Shown here: piece after piece, positions 27,112 through 62,899 of the stretch | Numbering within the stretch: position 1 is the stretch's first letter | How the letters are laid out: each line of letters opens with the position of its first letter | Virus record (IMG/VR): IMGVR_UViG_3300035698_020436 | Length of the DNA: 64,000 nucleotides | Source: an uncultured virus (IMG/VR IMGVR_UViG_3300035698_020436) | Taxonomy: Duplodnaviria > Heunggongvirae > Uroviricota > Caudoviricetes | Direction: 5' to 3' (one strand) | Made by a program: the position numbers and the translations under genes | Notes under the pieces: generated by a model | Seen by the model: only the letters and a program-made list of their open reading frames with translations | Told to the model about the DNA's origin: nothing | Database searches by the model: none

Positions 27112-27122
27112 AGGAGTGCCTG

Positions 27123-28416: not shown

Positions 28417-30369
28417 ATGAACACTACACAAATTGACCAATTAGCACTAAGAGTACGGGCTGCAAAAAATGCATATTACAATGGTAACCCTGTAATGTCC
28501 GATGCAGAATACGACACTCTGGAAGACGAACTCAGAAAAGCTGACTCGAATCACCCCGTCCTGAAAATGGTCGGTATGGCTCCAACAGGCGGTTCTTGGC
28601 CTAAAGCCAAACACGAAATACCAATGGGTTCGTTGAACAAAGCTCAGGTCAAGGCTGAAGTTGAAAAATGGATCAAAGGGGCTGCTACGGCTGGTGAAAT
28701 TGCAGTTATGGATAAACTTGATGGAGCTTCCATTGAGTTAACATACGAAAAACGTCATCTGGTTCGTGGTGCTACTCGTGGTGATGGTGATATCGGTCAG
28801 AACATAACCCGAAACATTCTGCTTATGCAGGGTGCTGTCAAGGTTTTGCCTTCTACCATTAACGGTCAACCAACCCCTGACAAAGTATATGTCCGTGGTG
28901 AAGTTATCGTATCCAAATCCCTGTTTGCCAAATTCTTCAAAGGGGAGTCAAACCCTCGTAACACTGCAAACGGAACAATGACCCGTCAAACCAACCATGA
29001 CAAATGTAAACATCTGTCCATCATTGCTTATCAGTATATGCCTGAAGGTTATGGTATGGACACCAAAAAGGCCGAACTGACTACCTTGAAGGACATCGGT
29101 TTTATCACTCCCAGATGGTCAATCGTAAGCTCTCTGGCCGAAATCGAAGCTGTCTATCAGGATTACATTAACAGTATCCGTGACGGCCTTGATTACTTGA
29201 TTGATGGTCTGGTTCTTGAAGTGAACAACAGAGACAAGAGAAATGACCTTGGTGACCTGAATGGTCGTCCTAAAGGTGCTATTGCTTACAAGTTCCCTCA
29301 TGAGTCCAAGCCGACCCACCTGAAAGCTATCCGCTGGCAGGTTGGTAACTCTGGCCGAATCACACCGGTTGCTGAGTTTGATACCGTAAATCTGGCAGGA
29401 GCTAACATTTCTCAGGCTTCGTTGCATAACCTCAGTAACATTGCTGAAATGGTGAACGAAGTCAGACCTGGATGGAAAGAACTCTGTATTGATGATTCAA
29501 TTTTGGTGAGTCGTAGAAATGACGTAATTCCCTACGTGGAGTCATTACTCTCCAGTGGTGATACGGCAGTACGTTTTAATATCCCGAAAAAATGCCCCGT
29601 ATGTGGTGAAAAACTCAGCATGAATGGTGAGTACCTTGTCTGTACGAATTCAGATGAATGTGAAGCTCAGATTATCGGAATGCTGAAACGCTGGGTAACC
29701 AAACTGGATATCAAACATATGGGTGAAGCTCTCTTGACAATGCTGATTGAAGACGGCCACATTGAAGACATTGCTGACCTCTACAGAGTTGACCCTATCA
29801 AGGTTTCAGTTATGACAATGAATGGCCGTATGGTTGGTGGAAGTGCCGACCGTGGCTTCCAGAACCTTCGTGCTAAAAAATCTATCCCTGTCGACCTCTT
29901 GGTAGGTTCCCTTGGAATCCCAATGATCGGTCGTAGTATGGCAAGAAAAATTAGTGATGCCGGATATGATACTCTCTCTAAAATGTATAAGGCTCAGATC
30001 GTTGATATTGCTCAAATCCCAGGTGTTGGCCAGACCAAAGCAGAATATTTCGTTCGTGGGTTTAGCAAAAGAATCGGTTTGATTGCCAAATTGATCCAAC
30101 ACCCCGACGATGGTGGTGCTGGTATCACCATTAAGGTCACTAAGGGGCCACTGAAGGGCAAAACTTTCTGTATGACAGGCTTCCGTGACAGTGCCTTGGT
30201 GGATGCCATTGAAGGCTCAGGTGGGACGGTGAAATCTGGTGTCAGCAAAACTCTGGATTATTTGGTTGTTCAAGACGTAACCTCAACCAGTGGCAAAGCC
30301 AAGAAAGCTGCCAAGTACGGAACTGCTATCATCAGTATTGATGAAGCCAAAAAAATGGCTGGTATCTAA
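28417..30369 (+). CDS. ligA: NAD+-dependent DNA ligase
   Basis: YY...SDAEYD, KLDG, TRGDG, RGEV, NPRN, DGLV, zinc finger, HhH repeats, C-terminal BRCT. Confidence 0.97.
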   Translation: MNTTQIDQLALRVRAAKNAYYNGNPVMSDAEYDTLEDELRKADSNHPVLKMVGMAPTGGSWPKAKHEIPMGSLNKAQVKAEVEKWIKGAATAGEIAVMDKLDGASIELTYEKRHLVRGATRGDGDIGQNITRNILLMQGAVKVLPSTINGQPTPDKVYVRGEVIVSKSLFAKFFKGESNPRNTANGTMTRQTNHDKCKHLSIIAYQYMPEGYGMDTKKAELTTLKDIGFITPRWSIVSSLAEIEAVYQDYINSIRDGLDYLIDGLVLEVNNRDKRNDLGDLNGRPKGAIAYKFPHESKPTHLKAIRWQVGNSGRITPVAEFDTVNLAGANISQASLHNLSNIAEMVNEVRPGWKELCIDDSILVSRRNDVIPYVESLLSSGDTAVRFNIPKKCPVCGEKLSMNGEYLVCTNSDECEAQIIGMLKRWVTKLDIKHMGEALLTMLIEDGHIEDIADLYRVDPIKVSVMTMNGRMVGGSADRGFQNLRAKKSIPVDLLVGSLGIPMIGRSMARKISDAGYDTLSKMYKAQIVDIAQIPGVGQTKAEYFVRGFSKRIGLIAKLIQHPDDGGAGITIKVTKGPLKGKTFCMTGFRDSALVDAIEGSGGTVKSGVSKTLDYLVVQDVTSTSGKAKKAAKYGTAIISIDEAKKMAGI

Positions 30370-37783: not shown

Positions 37784-37793
37784 ACAGCTCTTT

Positions 37794-37831: not shown

Positions 37832-37887
37832 ATGATGGTCTTAACTATACGGAGACAAATATTACTCTTAGAGTAATATAAAAAATA

Positions 37888-40695
37888 ATGGATAAATATC
37901 TTCAACTCACTCAAAACATTGCAGTTTTGTCTGGTCTGTTTCATGACTGGATTAAAGCCTCGGAGTTTTTTATAACAAAACTCCGAAAAAACGAAATTGT
38001 CCAAGACCCTCTAAGACATGATTGGCTATCTGCCGTGTTTTTTTCTTCTATAGTTGGGAAACAATCCGACCTTGAATGGCTTCAACAACTTATTGATGGG
38101 AATATCCCATCAGAATTTAAAATACCTGACAACCCATTAGAAAATCTCCCAGACACAGCTGCCGTTATATTTTGGTTAATTTTAACGCATCACAGATTAC
38201 CGATAATTGATCGATATAGAGGAAAAAACTGTGGGGATTTTCGGAATCTTTTTAAGTTTATTTCGGCTGAGTGGGGATACCAACATCTTAAAACCCAAGG
38301 CTTAGAGAAATGTTTTAAATTCCCTAAAGGATTACCAGACCATTCCCCTATTTTAGTACAACACATCCAGAAAGCAGCTCAGGATTTATATAATTCTATA
38401 GGTACGCTGGAGGAAGTAATCCAAAAAAGAAATCTTCGTACAATCCTGACTCAAGCTCGTATGGCTCTCATGTTAGCGGATCATTTCCATTCGTCCCAAG
38501 ATGCTGACCCAAACTGGCCGAAGACATATCCTGTTTTTGCTAATACGTACCGAGACACTGGTAAATTAAAGCAACGGCTTGATGAACACCTTGTCGGAGT
38601 AGCTAATCAGGCAGCCTTCAATGTGAAATTTCTGCATGAGCTTGTGGACATTAATCACAAACACCAAGCCTACCCGTCACTCGTTATTAAAAGCCCCGCT
38701 GAATTTCAATGGCAAGAAGATGCTGTCACAGTTATCCGAAACCAGTATCAAAAAGGAGGCTTTTTTGGGGTCAGTATTGCCAGTACAGGAACAGGTAAAA
38801 CATTAGGTAATGCTAAAATTATGCAAGCTCTATCGAAAGACGGGAAAGGACTTCATTATACATCAGCCCTTGGACTCCGAACCTTAACCCTACAAACTGG
38901 ATTGGAATACCGTGACCGGATTGGATTAACGGATAAAGATATGGCCGTTCTGATTGGTTCTACTGACAACCTGAATCCATTCTATGCAGGTTCAGAATCT
39001 GAAGACTGTTTATTAGATAATGAATTGATTGGGGGCTTGGCAGAAGCAGGGTTATCCCCAGTATTACGAGATGAAAAGAGCTGTCGGTTTTTCCACACTC
39101 CTGTGGTGGTTTGTACTATTGACCATCTAGTTGGGGCTACGGAAACTAGAAAGGGTGGCCGGTATATCCTACCTCTCCTTCGATTGATGTCTTCTGACCT
39201 AGTTATTGATGAAATAGATAATTTCTCAAATGGAGACTCCGTTGTTATTGGCCATTTAATCCATCTTGCTGGGATGTTAGGAAGAAAAGTCCTCATTTCC
39301 TCAGCCACAATTCCTCCTGATATGGCAGAAGGGTATTTTAATGCTTATCAGGCCGGTTGGGAAGAATTTTGTAAAAACCAATCTGAAAACCCTGCTGTTA
39401 GTTGTTTCTGGACAGATGAGTTTGGAGCAACACTTGAATCTGTGGAGACCCTGACTGAGTATCGGAAATACCATCAAGAATTTGTTGAACAGCGTGTCAT
39501 AGAATTAGCTAAGAAACCAATCAGACACCGAGTTAATATAGGGGAAATCCAACCTGTTAAAAATGAAAGCCGTAAAAAAACAAAAAACAGATTTTTTAAA
39601 TCCATGACAGATTGTTGTTTCGAATTACACAAGGACAATTACACTAAAGATGCCAAAACAGGTAAATTAGTGAGTATTGGTGTTATCAGAGTCAATACTA
39701 TAAATACTTGTGTATCACTTACAAAACATCTCTTGAAAACCAAACTTCCACCTAATATCGATATCCGAACAATGGCCTACCACAGCCAACAAGTTATGGC
39801 CTTGCGTAATGTTCAGGAGACTCATTTAGATAACGTGTTGAAAAGACACAAAGGTTCTCAAGCAATTTTTGATAACCCCATCATTAGAGAGCATGTAGAT
39901 AATAGCTCGGCTGATCATGTGATATTTATTCTTGTAGCTACTTCAATCGAAGAAGTTGGTAGAGATCATGATTTTGATTGGGGTGTAATCGAACCATCCT
40001 CATTTCGGGCAATTATTCAGCTAATAGGACGTATATTACGACATAGGATGAAAAATGTTACACAACCTAATGTAACGATTATGCAGTATAACTTAAAAGG
40101 CTTGCTTGGAGACCGACTCCCTTTCAAACTCCCAGGCTATGAATCTACTCAGCATGTTTTCAATTCTCATGATATTACTAACCTCATTGATAAGGAGACT
40201 ATCTGTGAAGGTTTGAATGCTACACCAAGAATTACCAAGAACACCCCCTTAGACCCCCAAAACAAGCTGGTAGACCTCGAACACACAATCACTCATGAAA
40301 CCCTATCTGATTACACCCAACAAGGGCCAGAGAGTCTTGCAGGCTGGGTTAAGACGTTTTGGTGGATGACTGCCACACCTCAAAAAATGAATAAGTTTCG
40401 GTCAGATTATCCCTGCCTTCGAGTCTTCTTGATCCCCACGGATGATGGTCCTGTTTTTTTTGAAAAAACAAAAAGACATGGGATTCGAAAAATCGAATCC
40501 TTGTATGGAGTTAGGGTAAACAAGTCTGATGATGAAATGCCTTTGAAAAGATTATGGCTTCATAGAGATTTTGAAACTATTATTGATGGTTTGGACCTTA
40601 TGATACACGGAGAAATCAACCTACCAACGTATGGTAAGGATAAAAATGAAATTCGTTATGAGTATTCTGACCAGTTTGGGTTAATTGCAAAATAG
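37888..40695 (+). CDS. cas3: type I-F Cas3 HD nuclease-helicase lacking the N-terminal Cas2 domain
   Basis: FHDWIKA at about residue 18, DPLRHDW, THHRLP, LADH, ASTGTGKT, DEID, SSAT, EVGRDHDFD, QLIGRILRHR. Confidence 0.93.
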   Translation: MDKYLQLTQNIAVLSGLFHDWIKASEFFITKLRKNEIVQDPLRHDWLSAVFFSSIVGKQSDLEWLQQLIDGNIPSEFKIPDNPLENLPDTAAVIFWLILTHHRLPIIDRYRGKNCGDFRNLFKFISAEWGYQHLKTQGLEKCFKFPKGLPDHSPILVQHIQKAAQDLYNSIGTLEEVIQKRNLRTILTQARMALMLADHFHSSQDADPNWPKTYPVFANTYRDTGKLKQRLDEHLVGVANQAAFNVKFLHELVDINHKHQAYPSLVIKSPAEFQWQEDAVTVIRNQYQKGGFFGVSIASTGTGKTLGNAKIMQALSKDGKGLHYTSALGLRTLTLQTGLEYRDRIGLTDKDMAVLIGSTDNLNPFYAGSESEDCLLDNELIGGLAEAGLSPVLRDEKSCRFFHTPVVVCTIDHLVGATETRKGGRYILPLLRLMSSDLVIDEIDNFSNGDSVVIGHLIHLAGMLGRKVLISSATIPPDMAEGYFNAYQAGWEEFCKNQSENPAVSCFWTDEFGATLESVETLTEYRKYHQEFVEQRVIELAKKPIRHRVNIGEIQPVKNESRKKTKNRFFKSMTDCCFELHKDNYTKDAKTGKLVSIGVIRVNTINTCVSLTKHLLKTKLPPNIDIRTMAYHSQQVMALRNVQETHLDNVLKRHKGSQAIFDNPIIREHVDNSSADHVIFILVATSIEEVGRDHDFDWGVIEPSSFRAIIQLIGRILRHRMKNVTQPNVTIMQYNLKGLLGDRLPFKLPGYESTQHVFNSHDITNLIDKETICEGLNATPRITKNTPLDPQNKLVDLEHTITHETLSDYTQQGPESLAGWVKTFWWMTATPQKMNKFRSDYPCLRVFLIPTDDGPVFFEKTKRHGIRKIESLYGVRVNKSDDEMPLKRLWLHRDFETIIDGLDLMIHGEINLPTYGKDKNEIRYEYSDQFGLIAK

Positions 40696-40708
40696 AAAGG
40701 ATTTGAAA

Positions 40709-41944
40709 ATGGATATTGAAATCCAGAAGTTTTTTGATGAACGTATCAAGAAAAAAATTAAGCATGGAAGTCAAAATATACCTGATGAACAGATGCCTGA
40801 TTTTGAGAACAAAATCAGGGAGAATTTTGTTTTGGAAACGTGGTTGCCAATAGCTGCGGAAAAAGCAAAATTCGTTACTCTCCGAACCCACTCAGGGAAA
40901 ATGACTCACCCTAGTGCCCGGACATCTTCGTTCGTAGCCAAGAAACCCCAAGAAAATGATGGTTATCTTCGAACAGGGAATGTTTCTGTAGAAACAGATA
41001 TGTGTGGAGGTGGGGCAGCCAGCCTAATCTATTATGCCTTCATGAACCTCAAGCTGACTGATGGGCAAACCATTTTAAGCCACCTACAAAAGTCTACTGA
41101 CTATATCAAACAGCAATTCGATATCCCTACAATGTCGTTCGATGACATCCAAAAAGGTTTTCTGGCTGTTTTTGATGAAACAGATGAAGACATTTATACT
41201 GATGGTTTACTCCGAGAAGTATTTTTCCCAGTTGACGATGGTTATCATCTTCTGTCCATTACGAGCCCTTCTGGGATCATTTTTGCCCAAACTGACAAAA
41301 TTGATAAAATCCGTTTCTCAGAAGAAACTAAAGAAATCCGAAAACTTAAACGGCAGGGAAAACCGTCAGATAAAGGTTTTACCGAATTTTTTGACCTGAC
41401 CATTGCCAACTATGGAGGTTCTCAACCTCAGAACATCGGAGCTCTCAACAGCAAGTACAAAAAAGTATACTTGTTATCAGCTTCCCCACCTCAGTTTAAA
41501 AAACGGAAAACCAAGCTACCCAAAACGAACTTTATGTCTATTCTGTGGGTAAAAGGCTTTCAGAGGTCTTTCCAGAAATTTCATACTCAGATAGCTATTA
41601 AAAAACAAAACCAACATAGCCGTCTCCGACGTGATAACCATATTCGGTTCATTGTGGACCAAATCTCTAAACAGATGTGGGCAGTTCGACAGACTGAGCC
41701 TGGATGGTCTAATTCAGATACCTATAGATCATTGCCCAGACATCAAAAAATCTGGTTGGATCAACAGTATGCTGGCAACCGCTATGACAATCCCGATTGG
41801 ATGGGCAAAGTAATTGCTGATATTAGCAGATGGTTCATCAACTCTTATAACACCCTGCTCGGTTCTGATGCAGAGTTGCTTGACGATACTGATTTGAGAC
41901 ATGTGGAAACTATCATTCAAGAATGTGAGGAGGCCATCCGATGA
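40709..41944 (+). CDS. cas8f: type I-F Cas8f (Csy1)
   Basis: TH..K.THP, FFPV...YHLLS, YGGSQPQNIG.LNS, YLL...PP. Confidence 0.92.
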   Translation: MDIEIQKFFDERIKKKIKHGSQNIPDEQMPDFENKIRENFVLETWLPIAAEKAKFVTLRTHSGKMTHPSARTSSFVAKKPQENDGYLRTGNVSVETDMCGGGAASLIYYAFMNLKLTDGQTILSHLQKSTDYIKQQFDIPTMSFDDIQKGFLAVFDETDEDIYTDGLLREVFFPVDDGYHLLSITSPSGIIFAQTDKIDKIRFSEETKEIRKLKRQGKPSDKGFTEFFDLTIANYGGSQPQNIGALNSKYKKVYLLSASPPQFKKRKTKLPKTNFMSILWVKGFQRSFQKFHTQIAIKKQNQHSRLRRDNHIRFIVDQISKQMWAVRQTEPGWSNSDTYRSLPRHQKIWLDQQYAGNRYDNPDWMGKVIADISRWFINSYNTLLGSDAELLDDTDLRHVETIIQECEEAIR

Positions 41945-42834
41945 AAGACATTTTACTGATACCAAAGATACAAGCTGAAAGTGCCAATGCTCATTCCAGT
42001 CCATACTCCGGCGGATTTCCTGCTATGACGGCTTGGATGGGTTTTGCTCATTTGCTTGAAAGAAAACTTCAACAGACTTCTTATGCAGGGATCAAGTTTA
42101 AAAGTGTTGGGGTGGTGAGTCATGATTTTACTTTGAGAAATTTTAAGCACCCCAAGGATTTCTGTTCCGCTATTATTGGCAGACGTTTACCCCCTCAAAA
42201 CCCTAGTCAAAAAGGGGCACCTCTGATTCCCGACTTAACCTGTGACCTAACGGTTTCTATAGTGTTGGAATGTTCAGGGATGGGGATGATAGATCATGAA
42301 GATTTCACCAACACTATTAGGAAAATCATTTATAGTCTTAAATTGGCTAGTGGTGATATTGTAAACCTCCAAAAACCAGAAGTTCTCACCGTCCATGATG
42401 AGAAAAGCCAAAAAACCCTGCTCCGTCGGCTTATGCCAGGTAACTGTCTGATTGAACGTCGGGATCTGATACAGAAAGCTATGGAAAACGGCCAAGATGC
42501 CCTTGAAGCTGTTCTTTCTCATACTTGTATAGAACACTCATATAATGAGGTAACAGATAAGTGGGAAAGTAAACGGAAAACATCAGGTTGGCTGGTTCCA
42601 ATTACTACAGGTTATCAAGGACTCACTAAATTGGGTCCTGCTGAAAACACACGAGATGCAAACGATACCCCACACCGATTTGCTGAAGCTATTGTAACAT
42701 TATGTGAATTTATCATGCCATATAAAATTGTCGAACTTGATAACATGCTATGGCACTATCATTCTGATATGAACAAAGACCTTTATCTTTGTCAACAGAA
42801 TAAACCTACATACTCAGGAGAAAACTATGTCTAA
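41941..42834 (+). CDS. cas5f: type I-F Cas5f (Csy2)
   Basis: ANA.SSP...GFPAMTAW.GF.H.LER, GWLVPI..GY, HRFAE. Confidence 0.93.
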   Translation: MKDILLIPKIQAESANAHSSPYSGGFPAMTAWMGFAHLLERKLQQTSYAGIKFKSVGVVSHDFTLRNFKHPKDFCSAIIGRRLPPQNPSQKGAPLIPDLTCDLTVSIVLECSGMGMIDHEDFTNTIRKIIYSLKLASGDIVNLQKPEVLTVHDEKSQKTLLRRLMPGNCLIERRDLIQKAMENGQDALEAVLSHTCIEHSYNEVTDKWESKRKTSGWLVPITTGYQGLTKLGPAENTRDANDTPHRFAEAIVTLCEFIMPYKIVELDNMLWHYHSDMNKDLYLCQQNKPTYSGENYV

Positions 42835-43858
42835 AGTCAAAATCCCCGGGAATTTGTCATTCCGCAAGCGTTTAGAACCCTCAAAAGGAATCCTTTTTGG
42901 AACTTCCTGGGACAAACGCCGAGAAATTTGTGTCCCTTTAACCAATGAACTTATCACTGTCAGAGGTGGTAAAACTCACCACCAAAATTTCCCTGACAAT
43001 CGTGAGAAAGGTGAGTCTGAGTTGGGTGATGCCAACATCCACACTCTTGATTCCTGTTTGTTGTCCAAGGATCACGATACCGTGCGTTTAACTTACACCT
43101 TGAAAGTTCTCAACGGTGTTGCCGGTATGGAAAGCTGTAATGACAAAGAATTCCTTAACCTGTTCGAGGAATGCTTAAAAGAAAAACTGGATACTGTTGG
43201 AGTGAAAGTTCTGGCCCATCGTTATGCCACCAACATTGCCAATGGTCGTCCTTTGTGGAAAAACCGTGAAGCTACCCATATTGAAACGGTCGTTCGTTGC
43301 CGTGGCAGTGAGACAGAGTGGGTTTTTGACGGTAAAGAAATCCCATTGCATACTTTCGATTATGAAAGTTCTGCATTGACAGGGCTAACTCAAGTCATTG
43401 AAGATGCTTTGTTAGGTAACACTGACCTTATCATTCTGGAAGTGTCCTCATACGCTTTGGTCGGTCAAGGTCAGCCGGTATTCCCCAGTCAAGAATTCAT
43501 TCAGGATCAAGGGAATGGTTTCAGCTCGAAGAAAGACGGGAAGAAAAGCAAAGTTTTATACTTCCCCGAAGATGTAGCCGGCCTGCACCCGCAAAAAATC
43601 GGTAATGCCATCCGTACTATTGATTCATGGTATGGAGACGGTGTCTCTCCGATTGCTGTGGAACCTTACGGTGCCCAGCCTACTTTCAATACCCATCACC
43701 GTAGCCCTTACGAACAAAAGGACTTTTATTCCATGTTGGTGAAATTTGTGAACAAGGAAGAATTGACCGAATCCGAAGTTCATTACTTCATGGCCATGCT
43801 GGTCAAAGGTGGTGTGTTTGGTGCAGCCAAATCCAAGCCTAAACCCAAATCCAAGTAG
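42827..43858 (+). CDS. cas7f: type I-F Cas7f (Csy3)
   Basis: LSF...L.PS, RYA.NIANGR.LW.NR, VFPSQEF, H.QKIGNAIRTID.WY, AVEPYG, GGVFG. Confidence 0.95.
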   Translation: MSKVKIPGNLSFRKRLEPSKGILFGTSWDKRREICVPLTNELITVRGGKTHHQNFPDNREKGESELGDANIHTLDSCLLSKDHDTVRLTYTLKVLNGVAGMESCNDKEFLNLFEECLKEKLDTVGVKVLAHRYATNIANGRPLWKNREATHIETVVRCRGSETEWVFDGKEIPLHTFDYESSALTGLTQVIEDALLGNTDLIILEVSSYALVGQGQPVFPSQEFIQDQGNGFSSKKDGKKSKVLYFPEDVAGLHPQKIGNAIRTIDSWYGDGVSPIAVEPYGAQPTFNTHHRSPYEQKDFYSMLVKFVNKEELTESEVHYFMAMLVKGGVFGAAKSKPKPKSK

Positions 43859-43870
43859 GAGAAAAAGAAC

Positions 43871-44440
43871 ATGAAATACTACCAAGAAATTACGTTGATC
43901 CCTGACCCTGTTGGGATGCCCCTGAGTTATTTACAGCAACGTCTGTTCTATCAGGTTCATGCAGCCTTGGCTCGTGAACCTGGGGATAATTCCGTGGGTA
44001 TATCTTTCCCTGATTACGATGGGGAAGGATGCCAACTGGGAAATAAAATAAGGTTGTTAGCTCCGACTGAGGATATTTTAAAAAACCTTCAACTTCGACA
44101 CCTACTTCTCAGGTTAAGTGATTATTCTCATTTGTCAGATATCCGACAGGTGCCTGAGAAAATTGAAAGCTATGCTTTTTTTCGTCGGGTTCAACCGAAA
44201 ACCAGCCTTGGCAGCATAGCTCGTCGAAAAGCTAGACGTGAAGGGATTACAGTTGATGAAGCCTTGAATCTTTTAGGACCACCTAAAAAAACACCCAAAC
44301 TCCCCGCTGTTTCAATGGAGAGTAAAAGTTCAGGTCAACAATATCCTTTGTTTGTTTCCCGAGTTTTATCTGATGAGCCAGCTACGGGGTCATACAGTAC
44401 GTATGGATTGAGTTCCACAGGTACTGTACCTTTATTTTAA
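43871..44440 (+). CDS. cas6f: type I-F Cas6f (Csy4) crRNA endoribonuclease
   Basis: YYQEITL, VH.AL, GISFP.Y, Arg-rich helix, S.SSGQ, YGLS...TVP.F. Confidence 0.93.
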   Translation: MKYYQEITLIPDPVGMPLSYLQQRLFYQVHAALAREPGDNSVGISFPDYDGEGCQLGNKIRLLAPTEDILKNLQLRHLLLRLSDYSHLSDIRQVPEKIESYAFFRRVQPKTSLGSIARRKARREGITVDEALNLLGPPKKTPKLPAVSMESKSSGQQYPLFVSRVLSDEPATGSYSTYGLSSTGTVPLF

Positions 44441-44558
44441 TCAAAACAAAAAACCTAAGTGGTTATGGCTACTTAGGTTTTTTGCTTTTAACATTGGTAA
44501 AAACATGTAATCATGTATAGGTCTTTGAAAACTCAATAGTTTTATGATTTATGCTCCT
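44441..44558 (+). promoter_or_regulatory. CRISPR leader
   Basis: AT-rich region between cas6f and the most conserved end of the array. Confidence 0.7.
44447..44484 (+). terminator. hairpin after cas6f (probable terminator)
   Basis: CAAAAAACCTAAGT...ACTTAGGTTTTTTG inverted repeat. Confidence 0.6.
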
Positions 44559-46490
44559 GTGAACTGCCGAGTAGGCAGCTTAGAATAACAGTTTGTACCG
44601 GTATTGTTTGGCAGATGTGTGAACTGCCGAGTAGGCAGCTTAGAATCTGCTCTGGAAATTTTGAGTATCCATACTGCCGTGAACTGCCGAGTAGGCAGCT
44701 TAGAATTGTTTGATTTTCTGACTCATTCCACCGAACGGGTGAACTGCCGAGTAGGCAGCTTAGAATTGTTTTGTCGAACCGACATTGATTTTTGAAAAGT
44801 GAACTGCCGAGTAGGCAGCTTAGAATTGGAGGTCAGAAAGGAAACGGTAACTATGTCTAGTTAACTGCCGAGTAGGCAGCTTAGAATTCAGACAATAATT
44901 CAAGAAAGTATCAATTAAAGTGAACTGCCGAGTAGGCAGCTTAGAATTGGAAAACCATAGAATCAGAGAAGCTGGATTCGTGAACTGCCGAGTAGGCAGC
45001 TTAGAATACATGTGTCGTAACCGTGTTCACGAAAAATTCGTGAACTGCCGAATAGGCAGCTTAGAATGGGTAACGATGACGTTGGAAAATGTAGACAGAG
45101 GTACACTGCCGAACAGGCAGCTTAGAATGACAGGTCGCATCGTGAATTTCTGGATCTGAAGTTAACTGCCGAGTAGGCAGCTTAGAATATTGATATTGAT
45201 GCTAATAACGGCAGTGATGAGTGAACTGCTGAATAAGCAGCTTAGAATACAAGTCACAATATTGGATTAGCAAGCACATAGTTAACTGCCGAATAGGTAG
45301 TTTAGAATTTGCTTTTTTGTGACTGTACCTAGAACCTGTGGTTAACTGCCGAGTAGGCAGCTTAGAATCGAAGAACACGTCGGATCTCCCTGAAAATATC
45401 GTGAACTGCCGAACAGGCAGCTTAGAATAGTTCATCACACAAGGCCATTAGCTCGTCCACCGTTAACTGCTGAACAGGTAGTTTAGAATACAGGGAATCT
45501 GCGGACTTTGCCAACCTTGATGTAAACTGCCGAATAGGCAGCTTAGAATTGGTCAACCGAACTACACAAAATGTCTTTTGCATGAACTGCCGAGTAGGTA
45601 GTTTAGAATTGTCCTGAAATGCCTGTTGTCACAAATGAGATGTTAACTGCCGAATAGGCAGTTTAGAATTATGTGGGATCAAAGCTCTCCCAAGGGTGGG
45701 TGTTAACTGCCGAGCAGGCAGCTTAGAATCATGTATAAGTTGCTCTCAATCCACAATTTAGGTGAACTGCTGGATAAGTAGTTTAGAATAATTTAATCAG
45801 GTCATTCATAACGGCCATTTTAGTTAACTGCCGAATAGGCAGCTTAGAATTCTTGTTGGATGCAAGTGTCTTATCAACATTTGTTAACTGCCGAATAGGC
45901 AGCTTAGAATTGAGACAGATCCCAAAGCTGAAATCGAATCCAGTGAACTGCCGAACAGGCAGCTTAGAATAAGGAACAGAAGCAGCTAGTTCAATTGGTA
46001 CTGTTAACTGCCGAACAGACAGCTTAGAATGAAATTCCTTCATCCACATATTCGGCAACTATGTGAACTGCCGAACAGGTAGTTTAGAATTTTATGGAAC
46101 TCACTACGACCGCCAGACCGGATCGTGAGCTGCCGAATAGGTAGTTTAGAATCTATTGACACCAAAGCAGATTGAATCCGCGGGAACTGCCGAATAGGCA
46201 GCTTAGAATGATGAAACTCTATGACGAGGAACGAGTGGAGGGTGAACTGCTGAATAAGCAGCTTAGAATACAATCGAATCAATGCCGTCTAAAAGCTCCG
46301 CAGGAACTGCTGGATAAGCAGCTTAGAGTTCGTATGGAGTAACCGTGAAAAACTGCCGGACAGGTAGTTTAGAATTTAGAAATAAGGGTGTGGCATTGAA
46401 GCCGAGTGAAAACTGCCGAATAGGCAGCTTAGAATAAGCACATCAGCTATGTTAAACCGCACTGCGTGAACTGCTGAATAAGTAGCTTAG
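44559..46490 (+). CRISPR. type I-F CRISPR array, 33 repeats and 32 spacers
   Basis: 28-bp repeat GTGAACTGCCGAGTAGGCAGCTTAGAAT with CTGCC/GGCAG stem; mostly 32-33-nt spacers; degenerate distal end. Confidence 0.97.
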
Positions 46491-46526
46491 CTTAGTTTCC
46501 AAAAGTTGTGGGTTGTTGGGGTAGAA
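46489..46526 (+). promoter_or_regulatory. 38-bp element copy 20, overlapping the last CRISPR repeat
   Basis: AGCTTAGTTT-CCAAAAGT-TGTGGGTTGTTG-GGGTAGAA. Confidence 0.75.
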
Positions 46527-46561
46527 GTAATTAACAATCTTAACCTATTTGGAGATAGAAC

Positions 46562-48109
46562 ATGGCCAAAACAATCATTGATAGTGTTACTTTAAATTTT
46601 ACTGACCTTACCGGTGCCAAGACAGGCTGTACCAAACTCGGTTCCAACAAATTCTGGAAGGGCTGGGTTGAAGACCTTGGAGACGGCACAGGCAATTTCG
46701 AGTGTTGCTGGGGTGCTACAGGCACACCAGGTAAAGACACCGGAAGCAAACGAGGTATTGACCTTGATGATGCCCAAACCTTGCTCAATAAGAAAGTTAA
46801 ATCAAAAGTAAAAAAAGGTTATACCCTCCTTGAAGTTCGTTCCGATGAGGAAGAGGTGGCCAAGGCTGCTGACAACGGTGTAAACCTCACTGCTGACAAG
46901 AAAGCCCCCAAAAAGAAAAAAGCTGTCAAGAAATCAACTTTCAATCCTGCTATCGGAAACTTGCTGGCTACCATCTATAATGAAACCAGCCGTGTTGTCA
47001 CAGCAGGTCTTTCCTCTCAGGCTGGCTCATCTGCTGATAACCCTATAGGTAACCTGTCTGATGCCCAGTTAGACGTAGGTGGTGGCATTTTGGACGATAT
47101 AGAGGCATTCCTGACACAGGAACTTGGCCATGAAGACACAGCTAACCGTGTTCAAACCTTGGCTTTGTCTGCTGATGGTGTACCTTCTGATGGTGTCATT
47201 GATTTGACTAATCAGTACATGTCGAATGTTCCGAGAGAAATTGACCGTTCACAAAGAGGTAGAGGCAACCTGCATCGTCTGGTTATTTCATCCTTTGAAC
47301 GCTTGGAAGAGCAACGAAAGTTTTTACAGTTGCTTCGTGATGCTCACCTGACCAAAGGTGTCTTTAAAGCTGCTGCTAATGCTTCTACAGGTGGTAAAGA
47401 ACAGATTTGGTATGAAGGCCTCAATTGCCTTATCGAATTGTGTGAGTCTGGATCAGCCGAATTCAAGAAAGTGTCAGACATATTCAACAACAACCAATCT
47501 CGTAAAAACCAGAACTGGTTCAGTGGTGGACGTTCTACTCTCCGCTTGAAACGGATTTTCAAGTTCACTCGTAATGGTACAGACAAACAGTTTGCCAAGT
47601 ATGCTAAAGAGATGGCTTCCAAGCCCAATGCAGTCGGCAATATTTTTGCTTGGCACGGCACACGTACTGAGAACCTTCTCGGTATCAGTAAAACTGGCCT
47701 CTTGATGCCTGAAAACTTGCCTCGTGGTATCCACGTATCAGGTAAAGCTTTCGGCAAAGGGATTTATCACGCCCCTGATATTTCAAAAATAAGAACCATT
47801 CACGGTGTGCAAACAGATGGTACGAATGGAGCTTTGAAGTCTATGAACTATACCTCTTCAAGGGGAGCTTATTACGGTTCAAATAACACTTCAAATTCGG
47901 CCTTCATGTACCTGCAGGAAGTTGCTTTAGGTAACGGTGATGTTCATACAGCCCCTTGCTGGGACAAACACCGTCCGAATAACTACCCGAAGAACGATTT
48001 CATTTATGCAGCAGCCGGCGGTTGTAGCACGTTATCCCATGATGAATTGGTAACTTTTTCTCAGGATGCTCAAATATTCCGCTATTTGCTTGAGATTGAA
48101 GCAAGATAA
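46562..48109 (+). CDS. PARP-like ADP-ribosyltransferase (WGR-like, helical regulatory and catalytic domains)
   Basis: NKFW...WGATG...K.K.KKGY; PIGNLS..QL...LTNQY...VP; WHGT, GKAFGKGIY, S.NY, EVALG, DELV. Confidence 0.85.
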   Translation: MAKTIIDSVTLNFTDLTGAKTGCTKLGSNKFWKGWVEDLGDGTGNFECCWGATGTPGKDTGSKRGIDLDDAQTLLNKKVKSKVKKGYTLLEVRSDEEEVAKAADNGVNLTADKKAPKKKKAVKKSTFNPAIGNLLATIYNETSRVVTAGLSSQAGSSADNPIGNLSDAQLDVGGGILDDIEAFLTQELGHEDTANRVQTLALSADGVPSDGVIDLTNQYMSNVPREIDRSQRGRGNLHRLVISSFERLEEQRKFLQLLRDAHLTKGVFKAAANASTGGKEQIWYEGLNCLIELCESGSAEFKKVSDIFNNNQSRKNQNWFSGGRSTLRLKRIFKFTRNGTDKQFAKYAKEMASKPNAVGNIFAWHGTRTENLLGISKTGLLMPENLPRGIHVSGKAFGKGIYHAPDISKIRTIHGVQTDGTNGALKSMNYTSSRGAYYGSNNTSNSAFMYLQEVALGNGDVHTAPCWDKHRPNNYPKNDFIYAAAGGCSTLSHDELVTFSQDAQIFRYLLEIEAR

Positions 48110-48140
48110 ATCCAGCTATTTCCATTTTGGAAACAGTTGA

Positions 48141-48170
48141 TCCCTGCCTTTACGGGCGGGGGTTTTTTTT
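48141..48170 (+). terminator. intrinsic terminator
   Basis: CCCTGCCT-TTAC-GGGCGGGG followed by a T8 run, directly before element copy 21. Confidence 0.8.
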
Positions 48171-48208
48171 GGCTTAGTTTCTAATTTTTGTGGGTTGTTG
48201 TAGTAAGA
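48171..48208 (+). promoter_or_regulatory. 38-bp element copy 21
   Basis: perfect consensus. Confidence 0.75.
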
Positions 48209-48563
48209 AGGCAATGATGCCTGATAAGTTGGTTGAAGCAAGATAAACAGGAGGATACTGTAATGACTAATTCAAAAAATGCTCAGAAGTTTGCCTCGTT
48301 TACCTATGCCGAGCAAAAAGAACTTTCAAATGCTCTTAGACACCACTTGAGTGAGTGTCAGGTACGAGAAGAATCTCAACGGGATGATGATCCGATCAAA
48401 CTCTTTGCGGAAAGTCTTCAAAATGTCTGTAAAGATAAATTTGTAGATTTAAGCCCTGCTGCTGCTCTGGAAAAAACTACCCACGAGACAGCAAAAGAGC
48501 GGATTACTCGTGTAGCATTGATGAGCAATGCTTTGTCCTATGCTTTAAAAGAGGGTATCAATA

Positions 48564-48941
48564 ATGAGACTTAAAAAAGGTGAAAAAAGGCACATAAACC
48601 CAGATGGTAATATTGGTGGGAAAGTTAGTTTCGGTTCTTTTGTTTCGAAAGATTCCTTTATATCATATGATTCTATAGTCCAATCAGGGTCTACAGTAAA
48701 AGAGAAGTCCACGGTAATACAATCTACTATTTCGGGTAAATCAATTATTCGGAATAATAGTTTTGTACGACGGTATGTTGTTTGGGAACAGTCTATTGTA
48801 GATAATAGTAATGTAGATAATTCTTCAACTAATAAGGAAGAAATACACACATCCATTATACAAAATTCACAAGTGGCTAATTGCAGCCTTGTGAATTGCT
48901 ACGGTATTAAAAATATGGAAATTAAAAAGGTAACAAAATGA
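48564..48941 (+). CDS. beta-helix repeat protein
   Basis: periodic S-[IV]-[IV]-x-x repeats; AT-rich. Confidence 0.55.
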   Translation: MRLKKGEKRHINPDGNIGGKVSFGSFVSKDSFISYDSIVQSGSTVKEKSTVIQSTISGKSIIRNNSFVRRYVVWEQSIVDNSNVDNSSTNKEEIHTSIIQNSQVANCSLVNCYGIKNMEIKKVTK

Positions 48942-51442
48942 TAAAAACGGAACAGTTTATCAACCAGCTTACTAAAGCCTTGGTTGAAAAAGACGTTGAG
49001 AATGTTTACCGCCAGTTATTCCAAATGGGGATACCTGACAGTGTGATTACTTCTCCCTATGGTGGTGATGGTATGTTGAAAAGTAAAGCTGAGAACCTGA
49101 TAGCTCTACTTGAATTCAAATATGACTATGACTTCACCAGTCGTAAAGACACCATCAAAGTTCTGATACAGGCTTTATACTATCTTAAAAAGGCTGAGTC
49201 TGCCGGGGATATCCTTCCTTCAATTGTTTTTGTCGGGGATAAAAACGAATGCTTTGTTATTCATTTGAATAGCCTTCAAAAGTATTTGGATGCTGATATT
49301 GATTGGACGATTGCCCCTTCAAGTGCTGGGGTTAAAAACCCAGAACTGACATTGGAAATGTTCAATGATAAAGAAGTGAACCCTTTCGTATTTGATGTAG
49401 GTAAAGGGTTCGATTTCTCAGAAGTTGTCAACAAAATACTGGACTTGAACAGTAATGTCGTTCGGTTGGTTCGTATCACTGAGAAAAACATCAATAACAT
49501 CTTTGAATATTTCGTTGGGAAAGTCTTGGTGACCTCAAAGAAGCTGGACACCAATGCTCAAGTAAGCCTGTTCATCAATATCCTGACCAATCCTGATGAG
49601 AACTACATCCATCCGAAAAAGAAAAACACCCTGATTACACCTGCCGGTGAAATTACAGTTAAAGGTGCAAAGTTTGCATCCTTCTTCTCTCACTTTGAAC
49701 GGGAATACAAGCCCTCAGAGAAAGAGAACCTGATAGCTATTTCCGACCGGTTAATTGAGGACGAAACCCGCCGGAGAGAGGGTGCATTTTTCACCCCAAC
49801 AATCTGGGTAGATGAAGCTCATAAAATGATTACGGAGCAATTCGGCTCGGATTGGAAAGAGAAGTATGTTGTTTGGGATTGTGCCTGTGGAACAGGTAAT
49901 TTGACTCGTGATTATAAATTCAAGGAATTATATTGTTCTACCTTGGTGCAAGAAGAAATTGATATGATGATTCAGAATAGGATTAATCCTGAAGCTGTAA
50001 AGTTTAAATATGATTTTTTGCAGGATGTACCTGAAGGGGTTGTCACAGGTTTTGGTGGTGGTTGGGAAGAGAAATTACCTGAAGGTCTGGTTAAAGCCCT
50101 TGATGAAGGCAAACCTATGATTATGTTGATCAACCCTCCTTATGGTACAGCAAGTAATCGAGACGAATCTTCTAAAAAAGGAGTTGCTTTTAACCAGGTG
50201 AATGCTGAAATGAAAGCTGATAAATTAGGAGCTTGTTCCCAGCAACTTTATGCACAATTCATGTATAAAATTGCTCGTATTAAAGAGCATTACAGTCTAG
50301 CAGATATGAATGTGGCTATTTTCAATAAGCCAAACTTTTTAACCGCCCCCACCTACAAGAAATTCCGTTCTTTTTGGGTTAGCCAATTCAGAATGAAAAA
50401 AGGGATGTTGTTTCAAGCTAGTAATTTCTCGGATGTTTCCACTCAGTGGGGGATTCTGTTTAGTATCTGGAAATCAGGAGGTTATGGAAAATATATGACC
50501 TGGGTTCAGGCTGATGTTAAAGAACAGGTTCCTGTTAAAGGCTTGGGTTTGAATACCATCCAAACGATAGGTACAAAAGATTTTGATAATATGGACAATA
50601 ACTACCCTGCTTCAAAGTGGGTCAGGGAAGAAACCAAAAATGATAGAGTATCTTTTAAATATGTCTTATGTTTAAAGTCATCTATAAATATAGGAAACAA
50701 GATCAAAACTCTTCCTATAAATGCTTTTGGGACTTTCATATCCGATACAAATACTGTTTATCAAAACTCACAAGGGGTAGTAATACTTAACACACGAAAT
50801 TCTGCAAATCAGGGTTCTTTACCTATAATCCCTGAGAATTTCCGCAAGGTTTGCTCCCTCTTTACAGCCCGTAAAACCATAACAGGGAAATATGCCAACT
50901 GGATAAACGACAAGGATGAATATAAAAGACCAAACCAAACCCACGATGATTATGAACAATGGAACAACGATGCTATTATTTATTCTTTGTTTCACTCAGC
51001 CTCAAACCAGTCTTCACTCAGAGATATCACGTACAAAGATAAGCAGTGGGATATTGAAAACGAATGGTTCTGGATGTCTATTGAATCAATCAAAGGGTTG
51101 GCCAATGAACACTCCAATCAGGCCGTCTATGACGACTGTAAGGCTAAAGGCAAGGAAAGGCATGTTTGTACCCTCCTGAAGGATTTAAAGCTCTCTGACG
51201 ATGCCTCAGACCTTTTAGTTGAGGCCAACAAATTGGTCGAGAAATCTTTCAAGTTCCGTGAAATGATGAATGAAGAACACCCTGAATATCACCTCAACTC
51301 CTGGGACGCTGGCTGGTATCAGATCGTCAAGATCCTCAAGGAATACCTGCCTGATGACCTGAAAGAGTTCCGTTTAGGGTATAAGAAGCTGGAGGATAGA
51401 CTCCGAAGTGGAGTTTATCAGTTTGGTTTCTTGAGGATGTAA
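48938..51442 (+). CDS. fused restriction-modification-like protein (PD-(D/E)xK-like N-terminus plus amino-methyltransferase; type IIG/IIC-like)
   Basis: GDG...LLEFK; GAFFTP; WDCACGTG (motif I); INPPY (motif IV). Confidence 0.75.
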   Translation: MIKTEQFINQLTKALVEKDVENVYRQLFQMGIPDSVITSPYGGDGMLKSKAENLIALLEFKYDYDFTSRKDTIKVLIQALYYLKKAESAGDILPSIVFVGDKNECFVIHLNSLQKYLDADIDWTIAPSSAGVKNPELTLEMFNDKEVNPFVFDVGKGFDFSEVVNKILDLNSNVVRLVRITEKNINNIFEYFVGKVLVTSKKLDTNAQVSLFINILTNPDENYIHPKKKNTLITPAGEITVKGAKFASFFSHFEREYKPSEKENLIAISDRLIEDETRRREGAFFTPTIWVDEAHKMITEQFGSDWKEKYVVWDCACGTGNLTRDYKFKELYCSTLVQEEIDMMIQNRINPEAVKFKYDFLQDVPEGVVTGFGGGWEEKLPEGLVKALDEGKPMIMLINPPYGTASNRDESSKKGVAFNQVNAEMKADKLGACSQQLYAQFMYKIARIKEHYSLADMNVAIFNKPNFLTAPTYKKFRSFWVSQFRMKKGMLFQASNFSDVSTQWGILFSIWKSGGYGKYMTWVQADVKEQVPVKGLGLNTIQTIGTKDFDNMDNNYPASKWVREETKNDRVSFKYVLCLKSSINIGNKIKTLPINAFGTFISDTNTVYQNSQGVVILNTRNSANQGSLPIIPENFRKVCSLFTARKTITGKYANWINDKDEYKRPNQTHDDYEQWNNDAIIYSLFHSASNQSSLRDITYKDKQWDIENEWFWMSIESIKGLANEHSNQAVYDDCKAKGKERHVCTLLKDLKLSDDASDLLVEANKLVEKSFKFREMMNEEHPEYHLNSWDAGWYQIVKILKEYLPDDLKEFRLGYKKLEDRLRSGVYQFGFLRM

Positions 51443-52159
51443 AATGAAACCCTGTAATCAAGAAAACAGATACATGAAAAAGGTAAAATACCGTCCGGCT
51501 AAGGATGGTGAGGTAGTATGCCAGGATTGTTTTCATTTCACATACCACCCATTCCCGAAACCTTGTTGTGTTGATGAAAATAATTTCCACATGTTTTTCT
51601 TAAAAGACCCAGAAAAATATACTTGTAGTAGAAGTCGGCCAGCTTAATTTTCTAAGGAGAAATACAATGAAAAATTTACTATTGAGAGCAGCTGCTATAC
51701 TTATTTTTTCTGTGATGATATTAGTTTTATACTCATATATGACAGCAAATCCAAATAAGTTTAACTTCTCGGCCAAAGAAGCACCCTCTGAAACGATAAT
51801 CTATGCCACAGGTAAAGTGGTAACAGCAACGACATGGAATGCTACTGTTATGGTACTTACACGCCCTCCAAGGGCAGGTGAGCAGCCTGAGAGGCTCACT
51901 TTTACAAAACAGGATACCGATACAATCCACATTCAAGAGAAATTCACCCCGACATTAAATGATGAGGCATTGAAAAACAGAAACGAGCAGACTTTAAAAA
52001 CCTTAAAGAACCTGAAAAAGCTATTACCAAAGAATACCACTGTATCTTATGACCCATCTTTTGGGGGCATTGTGATATTTGCAGAAGGTCGAAGATTTGA
52101 TTTTGGGGTAGCTTCTAATGAAACAATTACCTGTGATGAAACCTCTTTAAAATGATTCT

Positions 52160-52197
52160 GGCTTAGTTTCGGGTAGTAGTGGGTTGTTGTAGTAGAT
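52160..52197 (+). promoter_or_regulatory. 38-bp element copy 22
   Basis: GGCTTAGTTT-CGGGTAGT-AGTGGGTTGTTG-TAGTAGAT. Confidence 0.75.
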
Positions 52198-52245: not shown

Positions 52246-53043
52246 ATGTCAAATGCAATTGATTCCCAAACAAACAAAGATGCAATCAAAGCCTCAACCG
52301 ACTGGCGTGAAGCTGCTGTTGATCTAATCAGGTCTGAAATTTCAGAGGGGTTAAGCTTCTCTTCTGGTGAGATAGCTGCAATAATCCGAGTTGTCCGCCC
52401 TGAATTGAAATTCATGGTCAGTAAAGTCGGTGAGCTTATCCGTGATAAATTCCATGATCAAGAGCTTGACCAGTATAACGATGACGGTGACGGTTATCCT
52501 ACATACCCCTATCAGGGTCTGAGGATTGCTCAAGGCTTGTTCCCTGATCGTACCCCTGCTGGAACCGAAGTGTTTGTATATGGTCCTTCTCAAGAAGCCA
52601 TTGATGAACACGATTTCGAAGTTTACATCCCAATCCCAGGTGAAAACCTGAGTGATTACCCTGACCCTGATGTTCAGGCTGCCAGTGTCCCAGCCCCTGC
52701 TGCTTCTCAAGTCGTGAGTGACCGTCTGACAAAAACAGACATCAAAGCTAAAGTCTGGCAGGACAACCGTATGTGTATCCCTCGTAAAGCTTTGGAAGCC
52801 GCAATCTATCTTGGAGACGGAGTCTTGGGTGTTTCCAGTGACGTGTTTGTCTCTCAGACTGATACCGAAATCGTGGTAGTCATGGCTGACCCAAACAGCA
52901 CTGAGTTCAAATCTTACAAGATGTGGGCTACCAGTGGCAGCCGAATTGCTTTTGCCTCTACTGACAAGGATAATCCTTACGTCCCAGGTGAGTACAATTG
53001 CAAAATTGAAGCTGGTAAAATCACTGTAAACCTGAAAGACTAA
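52246..53043 (+). CDS. hypothetical acidic protein
   Basis: strong RBS, element upstream, hairpin downstream. Confidence 0.8.
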   Translation: MSNAIDSQTNKDAIKASTDWREAAVDLIRSEISEGLSFSSGEIAAIIRVVRPELKFMVSKVGELIRDKFHDQELDQYNDDGDGYPTYPYQGLRIAQGLFPDRTPAGTEVFVYGPSQEAIDEHDFEVYIPIPGENLSDYPDPDVQAASVPAPAASQVVSDRLTKTDIKAKVWQDNRMCIPRKALEAAIYLGDGVLGVSSDVFVSQTDTEIVVVMADPNSTEFKSYKMWATSGSRIAFASTDKDNPYVPGEYNCKIEAGKITVNLKD

Positions 53044-55076: not shown

Positions 55077-55077
55077 A

Positions 55078-61594: not shown

Positions 61595-61598
61595 CTGA

Positions 61599-62896: not shown

Positions 62897-62899
62897 AAT

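Follow-up and report, generated by a model that had tools for sequence, protein, structure and literature searches.

DNA-damage signalling of PARP type (PARP, poly(ADP-ribose) polymerase) is a hallmark of eukaryotes, and to our knowledge the prokaryotic and viral relatives of these enzymes have been annotated but almost untested. Here we describe the gene of a PARP-like, active-looking ADP-ribosyltransferase (ART), as judged from its sequence, in a 64,000-nucleotide stretch of DNA from an uncultured virus of the Caudoviricetes (IMG/VR record IMGVR_UViG_3300035698_020436), referred to below as the window. A sequence-only reading of this DNA had described a complete WGR-helical-catalytic PARP with the layout of PARP2 and PARP3, placed directly after a CRISPR array, and had raised the idea that it might be coupled to DNA ends generated by Cas3.

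The window was annotated with Pfam on 79 open reading frames (ORFs) of at least 100 aa, and with PHROG. Its gene content is typical of a very large phage, with many ORFs that belong to no family. On the upstream side of the PARP gene lie a gene encoding an NAD-dependent DNA ligase (LigA), a set of cas genes and the CRISPR array, and on the downstream side a gene whose product is called the partner here (Table 1). The same DNA recurs in salt-lake metagenome runs, at least half of the sampled words being present in 8 of the 19 runs listed.

Table 1. Features at and around the PARP gene, with positions in the 64,000-nucleotide window
Feature	Coordinates	Strand	Basis or remark
NAD-dependent DNA ligase (LigA), recurrent upstream neighbour	28417..30369	+	Pfam, PHROG; 16.2 kb upstream of PARP
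8.7-kb indel, cas3 through array, relative to locus L038	37774..46478	.	blastn
cas3, csy1, csy2, csy3, csy4	37888..44440	+	Pfam Cas3-like_C_2, Cas_Csy1, Cas_Csy2, Cas_Csy3, Cas_Csy4
Type I-F CRISPR array, 32 repeats of 28 nt, ~30 spacers	44559..46493	+	context, separate from the PARP unit
Promoter-like motif TTAGTTTC-N7-TGTGGGTTGTTG, 44 nt before PARP ATG	46492..46518	+	23 in-window copies; expectation 0
PARP gene, 515 aa: WGR, Lys-rich linker, helical regulatory domain, ART catalytic domain	46562..48109	+	ORF, Pfam, AlphaFold2 model
WGR domain, residues 9-88, with W50-G51-A52 replacing W-G-R	46586..46825	+	Pfam PF05406
Lys/Ala/Pro-rich linker, ~residues 104-124, DKKAPKKKKAVKKS	46871..46933	+	translation, low pLDDT
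Helical regulatory domain (HD; PARP_reg), residues 125-273	46934..47380	+	Pfam PF02877
ART catalytic domain, ~residues 298-515, with H365, Y402, Y430, E495	47453..48106	+	Pfam PF00644, PHROG 23333
Hairpin with T run resembling a terminator, 30 nt beyond PARP stop	48139..48174	+	consensus scan
Partner protein, 265 aa, no Pfam family	52246..53043	+	winged-helix-like N-terminal part, MraZ/AbrB-like C-terminal part, weak matches

The PARP gene and its family

The PARP ORF starts with ATG, and all three of its Pfam domains exceed the curated cut-offs: WGR (PF05406) with E 9.9e-7 and 29.2 bits against a cut-off of 22, PARP_reg (PF02877) with E 2.5e-8 and 34.5 bits against 26.8, and the PARP catalytic domain (PF00644) at residues 298-409 with E 4e-15 and 56.3 bits against 26.7, the last covering profile positions 1-95 only. 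The PHROG 23333 match spans residues 326-509. When the PDB was searched with the window protein, only chains of PARP1, PARP2 and PARP4 were returned (44 distinct sequences at E ≤ 1, best 3e-9); with a profile of 34 relatives the best E fell to 2.9e-14 and the alignment reached from the WGR domain to residue 410. The window gene product is thus almost certainly a PARP-family enzyme.

Residue-level alignments agree with the motifs that the sequence-only reading had picked out. W50-G51-A52, its WGA variant of the WGR-like N-terminus, pairs with the WGR of PARP1 (sWGRvGT). Both of the regulatory-domain signatures that it quoted align with the PARP1 HD residue by residue, NPIGNLSD.QL with MPLGKLSKRQI and DLTNQYMSNVP with DLSNRFYTLIP, and HD residues N160, P161 and G163-D167 are invariant among the 34 aligned sequences. 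The Lys-rich linker can also be seen in the translation; it varies among relatives and is not conserved in the 34-sequence alignment. In the catalytic domain, HMMER pairs WHGTRT (H365) with WHGSRT of PARP1 and GKGIYHA (Y402) with GKGIYFA, and we take the PARP1 counterparts of H365 and Y402 to be H862 and Y896.

None of H365, Y402, Y430 and E495 varies among the 34 aligned sequences, and all 42 locus-derived sequences that span the sites retain them; an insertion of about 15 residues sits between the two active-site tyrosines. E495 begins a strand and lies, together with the invariant H493 and D494, in a C-terminal HDELVTF (family form H-D-E-[LIV]-V-T-F), which presumably resembles the NEYIVY of PARP1. 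Judged by its residues, the active site appears to be of the H-Y-E type, as had been claimed. E495 is the likely equivalent of the catalytic glutamate E988 of PARP1, an assignment made from the superposition of the folds and the likeness of the motifs rather than from a printed residue pairing.

An AlphaFold2 model of the window PARP, built with the 34-sequence alignment as input, has a mean pLDDT of 80.4 and a pTM of 0.75; its low-confidence stretches are in the linker (residues 104-107 and 111-124, pLDDT < 50) and at residues 153-162 and 393-397. In Foldseek, the PDB entries that match the model best are DNA-break-bound PARP1 and PARP2, with E from 6e-23 to 2e-20. VIA-align superposes model residues 1-515 on PARP1 541-1008 (4dqy_C) with Z 25.8 and an rmsd of 3.3 Å over 395 residues, and the WGR part (model residues 1-100) falls within this superposition, which starts at PARP1 residue 541. 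Model residues 124-515 superpose on PARP1 662-1008 in many catalytic-fragment entries (Z ~25-26), and across the catalytic domains of PARP1, PARP2, PARP3 and PARP4 the Z values are 24-26.6 (model 116/124-515). A comparison of predicted structure with PARP1 and PARP3 had been proposed as a check on the sequence-only reading; it supports a complete three-domain enzyme, whose domain order and fold match PARP2/3 or the C-terminal part of PARP1.

The gene also has the putative transcription signals of its own that had been attributed to it. The bipartite intergenic motif upstream of it probably represents a phage-specific class of promoter, to judge from its copies in the window. All 23 point along the genes downstream of them, those in the window's left half being on the minus strand and those in its right half on the plus strand; they include copies at 626-652 (-), 28355-28381 (+, before LigA), 37797-37823 (+, before cas3), 48174-48200 (+, just past the terminator-like hairpin of PARP) and 52163-52189 (+, before the partner gene), so that PARP, LigA and partner are each preceded by it. 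The five closest relatives (L008, L009, L010, L011 and L038) have kept copies that flank PARP at either end, and the motif is not conserved around PARP in relatives at ≤ 67% identity. Downstream of the stop codon, a hairpin of 11 pairs, six of them G-C (48139-48164), is followed by TTTTTTGG; the consensus scan for terminators found 2 sites in the region against 2.4 expected.

Relatives of the window PARP are numerous in metagenomes. At least 256 proteins were found at E ≤ 1e-3 in a word-indexed metagenome search in which 8000 candidates were scored; the 120 relatives listed are 455-527 aa long and 54-100% identical, the full set of three Pfam domains is present in 116 of them, and for many the contig is 100-536 kb long. 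The protein cluster of the window PARP is itself recorded on a contig of 402,136 bp. Among representatives at 50% identity, four full-length proteins (E 1.8e-260 to 3e-159) are followed by fragments and far weaker PARP-like proteins, with counts of 2042 proteins at E ≤ 1e-3, 477 at 1e-10 and 15 at 1e-30. In deposited phages, tblastn gave matches in 8 of 50,697 records (Klebsiella, Xanthomonas, Stenotrophomonas and one uncultured phage), at 25-34% identity over 29-60% of the query, and none of these records covers ≥ 80% of it. Because the matches in isolated phages are weak and partial, the window PARP is placed in a separate, metagenome-only clade. No close nucleotide relative of window positions 36000-52000 was found among the same 50,697 records. 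The earlier statement that such genes are rare in phages therefore holds for deposited records but not for metagenomes, where the family has at least 256 clusters and many of these come from contigs of 300-536 kb, nor does it take account of published jumbo-phage PARPs.

Within its clade the gene appears to be under purifying selection, since variants fall mostly on third codon positions and protein identity exceeds DNA identity: 23 of the 28 listed differences inside the PARP ORF in strain variants from other runs are at third positions, and the closest relatives are 82-83% identical in DNA and 88-89% in protein. PARP is a vertically conserved gene of one huge-phage clade. Little weight is given to a neighbour-joining tree of 39 sequences, which has no support values and leaves out L007 (a duplicate of the window) and L040 and L065 (truncated); it separates phage and bacterial clades and places two lineages with adjacent cas genes apart. 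Two relatives carry a second, short PARP of 276-301 aa that consists of the catalytic domain only (L003:17628-18533 (+) and L024:16102-16932 (+)), 5-6 kb downstream of the three-domain PARP; Pfam and tblastn found no counterpart of it in the window.

Recurrent neighbours and a possible role

Seventy-eight loci around PARP relatives were fetched, which form 67 non-redundant groups and sample PARP neighbourhoods only. Pfam was run on ORFs of ≥ 90 aa in four loci and of ≥ 170 aa in 33 more, leaving out 11 ORFs (four long and probably antisense, seven already annotated). Neighbours were clustered across loci and then counted by tblastn. Phage and bacterial clades were split at 54% identity; L051 lies just below the split, yet it groups with the phages in the neighbour-joining tree.

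In the bacterial sister clade (42-47% identity), LigA ends ≤ 1 kb upstream of PARP in 10 of the 13 loci with ≥ 1 kb of upstream sequence, and the flanks are bacterial (NadA, GGDEF, sigma factors, transporters). An ADP-ribosylglycohydrolase (ARH) precedes LigA in L055, L064 and L073, as does a reverse transcriptase, a Macro-domain protein follows PARP in L068, and DarT and Macro lie nearby in L057. A row of genes is seen in five of these loci (L055, L059, L064, L068, L073), consisting of a ~1000-aa HEAT-repeat protein, a 551-aa protein, the reverse transcriptase, ARH, LigA, PARP and partner; in L068 a solo WGR protein stands in place of the ARH. No publication on a LigA-PARP operon was found in the open-access literature searched.

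In the phage clade, LigA lies ≤ 4 kb upstream in 7 and ≤ 10 kb upstream in 9 of the 18 loci with ≥ 4 kb of upstream sequence. Of the 27 phage-clade loci with ≥ 2 kb of sequence beyond PARP, 16 encode the partner (265-345 aa) downstream on the PARP strand, after gaps of 146-7083 nt; in both relatives that are complete it lies 11 kb downstream of PARP. The window and these complete relatives (G002 and G003) agree in the order LigA ... PARP ... partner. An alignment by hhalign of the partner with the ~280-aa protein that comes right after the bacterial PARP gave a probability of 72% (E 3.3e-5, 147 columns). The model of the partner has a pLDDT of 78.8; its N-terminal part resembles Fur-type winged helices (Z 5.0-5.6) and its C-terminal part MraZ (Foldseek E 0.024, probability 0.99; VIA Z 5.0), while the ESM Atlas gave no usable feature match, and its structure rows, which include clusters of MazE, MraZ and SymE type, are all below TM 0.56 and give a weak hint only. 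Of 5 related viral records, 3 contain ARH genes, and both complete records are among these 3.

Some further observations concern these neighbourhoods. In the window, LigA stands together with a CinA/PncC-type gene (NMN deamidase family) and an HNH-like gene (26596-30369 (+)), and this clustering suggests that the phage handles NMN, the by-product of the ligase. The 834-aa protein encoded at 48938-51442 (+) has no Pfam family; an NPPY-type motif in its translation makes it possibly N6-adenine DNA methyltransferase-like, and homologues of it adjoin PARP in L009 (two copies), L023, L024 and L038. In many relatives, convergent genes of 340-510 aa slightly overlap the 3' end of PARP (for example L002:11515-12873 (-), L019:2760-4151 (-) and L048:11530-13053 (-)). 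They were considered as partners and rejected: their weak matches to HNH or to DUF4379 treble clefs plus helix-turn-helix make them likely insertions of homing-endonuclease type, and the window has none.

The observations that bear on function are the three-domain architecture, the fold, the invariant catalytic residues, purifying selection, the conserved neighbours and independence from cas genes (below). By analogy with characterised PARPs, we slightly favour a role in which DNA-structure-gated ADP-ribosylation would serve phage DNA replication or repair, together with LigA, the partner and an ARH encoded in trans. The most likely mechanism is modelled on PARP1/2/3 and on the DNA-dependent enzyme of Herpetosiphon. 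The WGR domain would bind a DNA end, a nick or another replication or repair intermediate of the phage genome; binding would lift the block that the HD imposes on the NAD+ site; and the enzyme would then ADP-ribosylate itself, nearby proteins or DNA ends. PARP would probably act in a module with the phage LigA and the DNA-binding-type partner, and its marks would be erased by an ARH encoded elsewhere in such genomes. DNA-dependence, the targets, mono- as opposed to poly-ADP-ribosylation and the part played in repair or replication are all features that we infer.

Several findings count against this role. LigA is not adjacent to PARP, being 16.2 kb away in the window and ~20 kb and ~55 kb away in the complete relatives, so that the linkage of the two genes in phages is loose synteny and not an operon. 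The fold matches of the partner are weak (Z ≤ 5.6) and below the trusted level, and its description as a DNA-binding type is for that reason a lead only. ARH, Macro and a second PARP-like gene were not found in the window by Pfam or by tblastn with ARH, Macro and small-PARP queries; the search for a PARG or macrodomain partner that the sequence-only reading had suggested thus came back empty there, and the ARH genes are found elsewhere, in the related records mentioned above. HMMER alignments to PARP1 end near residue 416-419, short of E495.

A further qualification concerns the WGR motif. The arginine of this motif contributes to DNA-dependent activation of PARP1 and PARP2. It is missing throughout the phage clade: across the 34 aligned relatives the motif reads W-G-[A/S/P/T/E], with arginine in none, and in the locus-derived set arginine is absent from all phage-clade sequences that span the site. 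All sequences of the bacterial sister clade have [Y/F]-G-R. Sensing of DNA by the phage enzymes may therefore be altered or lost. If the arginine has that role, the phage PARPs either sense DNA differently or need another factor, for which the conserved downstream partner is an obvious candidate. The earlier claim of DNA-break sensing is thus borne out as to the layout, and it is put in question by the loss of an arginine that the bacterial sister clade has kept.

Other functions have to be weighed against DNA-structure-gated ADP-ribosylation. The one that survives best, although we consider it unlikely, is host takeover, in which the PARP would ADP-ribosylate host RNA polymerase or translation factors in the manner of T4 Alt, ModA and ModB. 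Iyer et al. propose such a function for jumbo-phage PARPs (PMC7824862), and a promoter-like motif common to many window genes is compatible with a programmed expression class. A WGR domain combined with an autoinhibitory HD makes, however, for gating by nucleic acid, a design that sets this protein apart from the T4 enzymes; its nearest relatives among cellular proteins stand in bacterial operons with LigA, ARH or Macro, where no host takeover is at issue; and synteny with LigA and a DNA-binding-type partner points to DNA transactions.

An NAD+-depleting switch is more doubtful still. An activated PARP would burn NAD+ and stall the cell, on a trigger such as DNA damage from a competitor or a host nuclease, and so bring about superinfection exclusion or altruistic shut-down. 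H-Y-E PARPs are able to consume NAD+ fast, and an NMN deamidase of CinA/PncC type encoded in the window together with LigA marks NAD+ as a managed resource of the phage. But the phage's own ligase needs NAD+, so depletion would harm the phage; ARH erasers in relatives and in bacterial operons speak for reversible signalling and not for a one-way sink; and the PARP family is conserved like a housekeeping gene.

The CRISPR-Cas neighbour

The PARP gene does directly follow the CRISPR array, as had been stated: the repeats are uniform at the cas end and degenerate toward PARP, and the last, degenerate repeat (46466-46493) abuts the promoter-like motif of PARP, whose ATG is at 46562. Contigs from four other runs bridge the junction without differences, so the junction is genuine. 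In contigs of other runs, array variants skip 121, 512 or 752 nt or swap them for a different spacer-sized insert, and joints at 37791, 46490, 46527, 48170 and 48200 sit on motif copies, which we take as assembly ambiguity.

No family match to cas1 or cas2 was found by Pfam among the 79 ORFs of the window, and the PHROG helicase profile aligns to Cas3 only from profile position 96, the N-terminal part of the Cas2-3-type profile being missing. In this the locus fits phage CRISPR systems without acquisition genes, which are known (PMC7162821). At E ≤ 0.01, the 30 spacers give no match to any fetched locus or to the window with its array masked; viral_contigs contains no exact copy of the first spacer, and nothing in the phage collection matches the array as a whole.

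Relatives carry PARP and cas genes independently of each other, an outcome that the sequence-only reading had itself named as telling against the coupling. Cas genes lie ≤ 10 kb from PARP in 2 of 25 non-redundant phage-clade loci and in none of 13 bacterial-clade loci. Two relatives rated complete by CheckV (536 kb and 315 kb) have PARP, and neither has a match to the Cas3 C-terminal domain. Besides the window's own, the only cas-adjacent group is L001/L002/L015 (65% PARP identity), whose type I-C genes cas3, cas5d and csd1 lie 1-8 kb upstream on the opposite strand. A scan of all loci for repeat arrays, together with a search with the window repeat, found arrays in these two groups only. In L002, which was assembled as a 528-kb contig, the minimal type I-C cluster (L002:1-8839, array at 1-384) lies between the partner gene and PARP and includes a gene for a 502-aa TnpB/Cas12f-TNB-like protein; a second TnpB-like fragment is found 5 kb downstream.

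Comparison with L038 (75% PARP identity) shows how the neighbourhood may have arisen. In blastn, L038 4004-4161 corresponds to window 37616-37773, the 3' end of a DNA-polymerase-exonuclease-like RNase T gene, and L038 4247-5879 to window 46479-48108, with ~85 nt between the two matches. L038 thus joins RNase T directly to the PARP promoter region, and the block with cas3, csy1-4 and the array is a clean indel. Likewise, no I-F repeat is found upstream of PARP in L008 (89% identity, 625 nt), L010 (77%, 288 nt) or L011 (76%, 492 nt). From these alignments, the CRISPR adjacency is best explained as an 8.7-kb cassette indel, and PARP seems to have come to lie beside the CRISPR system through a chance insertion rather than as its partner.

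CRISPR cassettes of two subtypes, I-F and I-C, have nevertheless settled independently within 10 kb of this PARP, and for this reason a coupling retains a small probability. Beyond a plastic hotspot, it is conceivable, if very improbable, that the module of PARP, partner and LigA handles or signals the nicked or single-stranded DNA (ssDNA) made by Cas3; if true, it could, for example, shield or mend the genome of the phage itself while interference acts on competitors. Still less credit is due to a CRISPR-coupled PARP proper, one that senses Cas3-made nicks or ssDNA and modifies Cas proteins, their targets or repair factors. Its attractions are the adjacency to the array, present alike in four other runs, the second lineage with a different cas cluster and array 1-10 kb upstream of PARP, and the consensus scan, which found no terminator-like site between array and PARP, so that read-through from the array is possible. 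An unrelated ART, AcrIF11, moreover ADP-ribosylates the type I-F complex (PMC8120803). Against it stand the scarcity of cas genes and arrays near PARP, the complete relatives that lack a Cas3 match, the clean indel relative to L038 and the repeat-free upstream sequence of the closest relative, L008. The two cas clusters also differ in subtype, in strand and in the side on which they lie with respect to the partner gene; PARP is flanked by a promoter-like motif and a terminator-like hairpin of its own; and the region is plastic, with HNH-type, TnpB-like and methyltransferase insertions in relatives. The proposal of coupling to Cas3 is therefore unsupported.

An anti-CRISPR role like that of AcrIF11 is rejected, as the window PARP is built differently and its family is conserved also where phages lack cas genes. 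AcrIF11 was the only relevant item on PARP with phage CRISPR in the open-access literature searched.

Farther from PARP, the window has two genes of RNA-repair type: one product bears the HAD domain known from 'Swiss Army Knife' RNA repair proteins (12289-13362 (-)), and the other is an RNA ligase whose OB-fold domain is of the PHA02142 kind (54994-56247 (+)). Its right end (58519-64000 (-)) holds a cluster of sugar-nucleotide or surface-polysaccharide type with a DegT aminotransferase, an NAD-dependent epimerase, two hexapeptide acyltransferases, a methyltransferase, a GT-D-like glycosyltransferase and UDP-glucose dehydrogenase.

Comparison with known systems

In summary, the window adds a well-preserved PARP from a salt-lake huge phage and outlines the companions of such PARPs, namely an NAD-dependent ligase, a DNA-binding-type partner and ADP-ribosylglycohydrolases; CRISPR-Cas is not among them. 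The clade-wide loss of the WGR arginine, with the tryptophan retained, and the conserved partner offer biochemical handles on a PARP that works without chromatin.

The window PARP shares with human PARP1 (4dqy chain C), PARP2 and PARP3 the order of three domains, the fold and the HD, WHG and GxGIY motifs, and like PARP2/3 it is without zinc fingers or a BRCT domain. It differs from the human enzymes in sequence (~17-24% identity), in the W-G-[A/S/P] that its clade has where the human proteins have W-G-R, in the insertion between the active-site tyrosines, in the Lys-rich segment, which lies between WGR and HD and is not N-terminal, and in being encoded by a phage.

Among bacterial enzymes, the PARPs of Herpetosiphon aurantiacus and Clostridioides difficile CD160 are alike at the level of the domain set. 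Bacterial WGR-PARP_reg-PARP enzymes are active in vitro, the Herpetosiphon enzyme requires DNA, and the marks made by bacterial PARPs are reversed by cognate glycohydrolases (PMC8120803). The bacterial sister clade differs from the window in keeping the arginine of [YF]GR and in having an eraser gene adjacent in its operons; none lies beside the window PARP.

AcrIF11 is likewise an ART-fold enzyme tied to type I-F CRISPR-Cas, where it inactivates the Csy complex (PMC8120803). In contrast to the window PARP, it is a small, single-domain mono-ART without the H-Y-E triad, WGR or HD.

A further comparison is with the jumbo-phage PARPs of Klebsiella vB_KpM_FBKp34, Xanthomonas XacN1 and Xoo-sp13, which are likewise phage-encoded and annotated as poly(ADP-ribose) polymerases, and whose tblastn matches cover HD and ART; these proteins from isolated phages differ from the window PARP in their low identity (25-34%) over 29-60% of its length. 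PARPs in a few jumbo phages had already been published (PMC7824862), and work on NAD-jumbo phages describes PARP1-like genes together with LigA and NAD+ supply, for which 'self-repair' has been proposed (PMC11662467). The type of gene described here has thus been recorded in large phages before, and the window PARP joins it as a well-preserved example.

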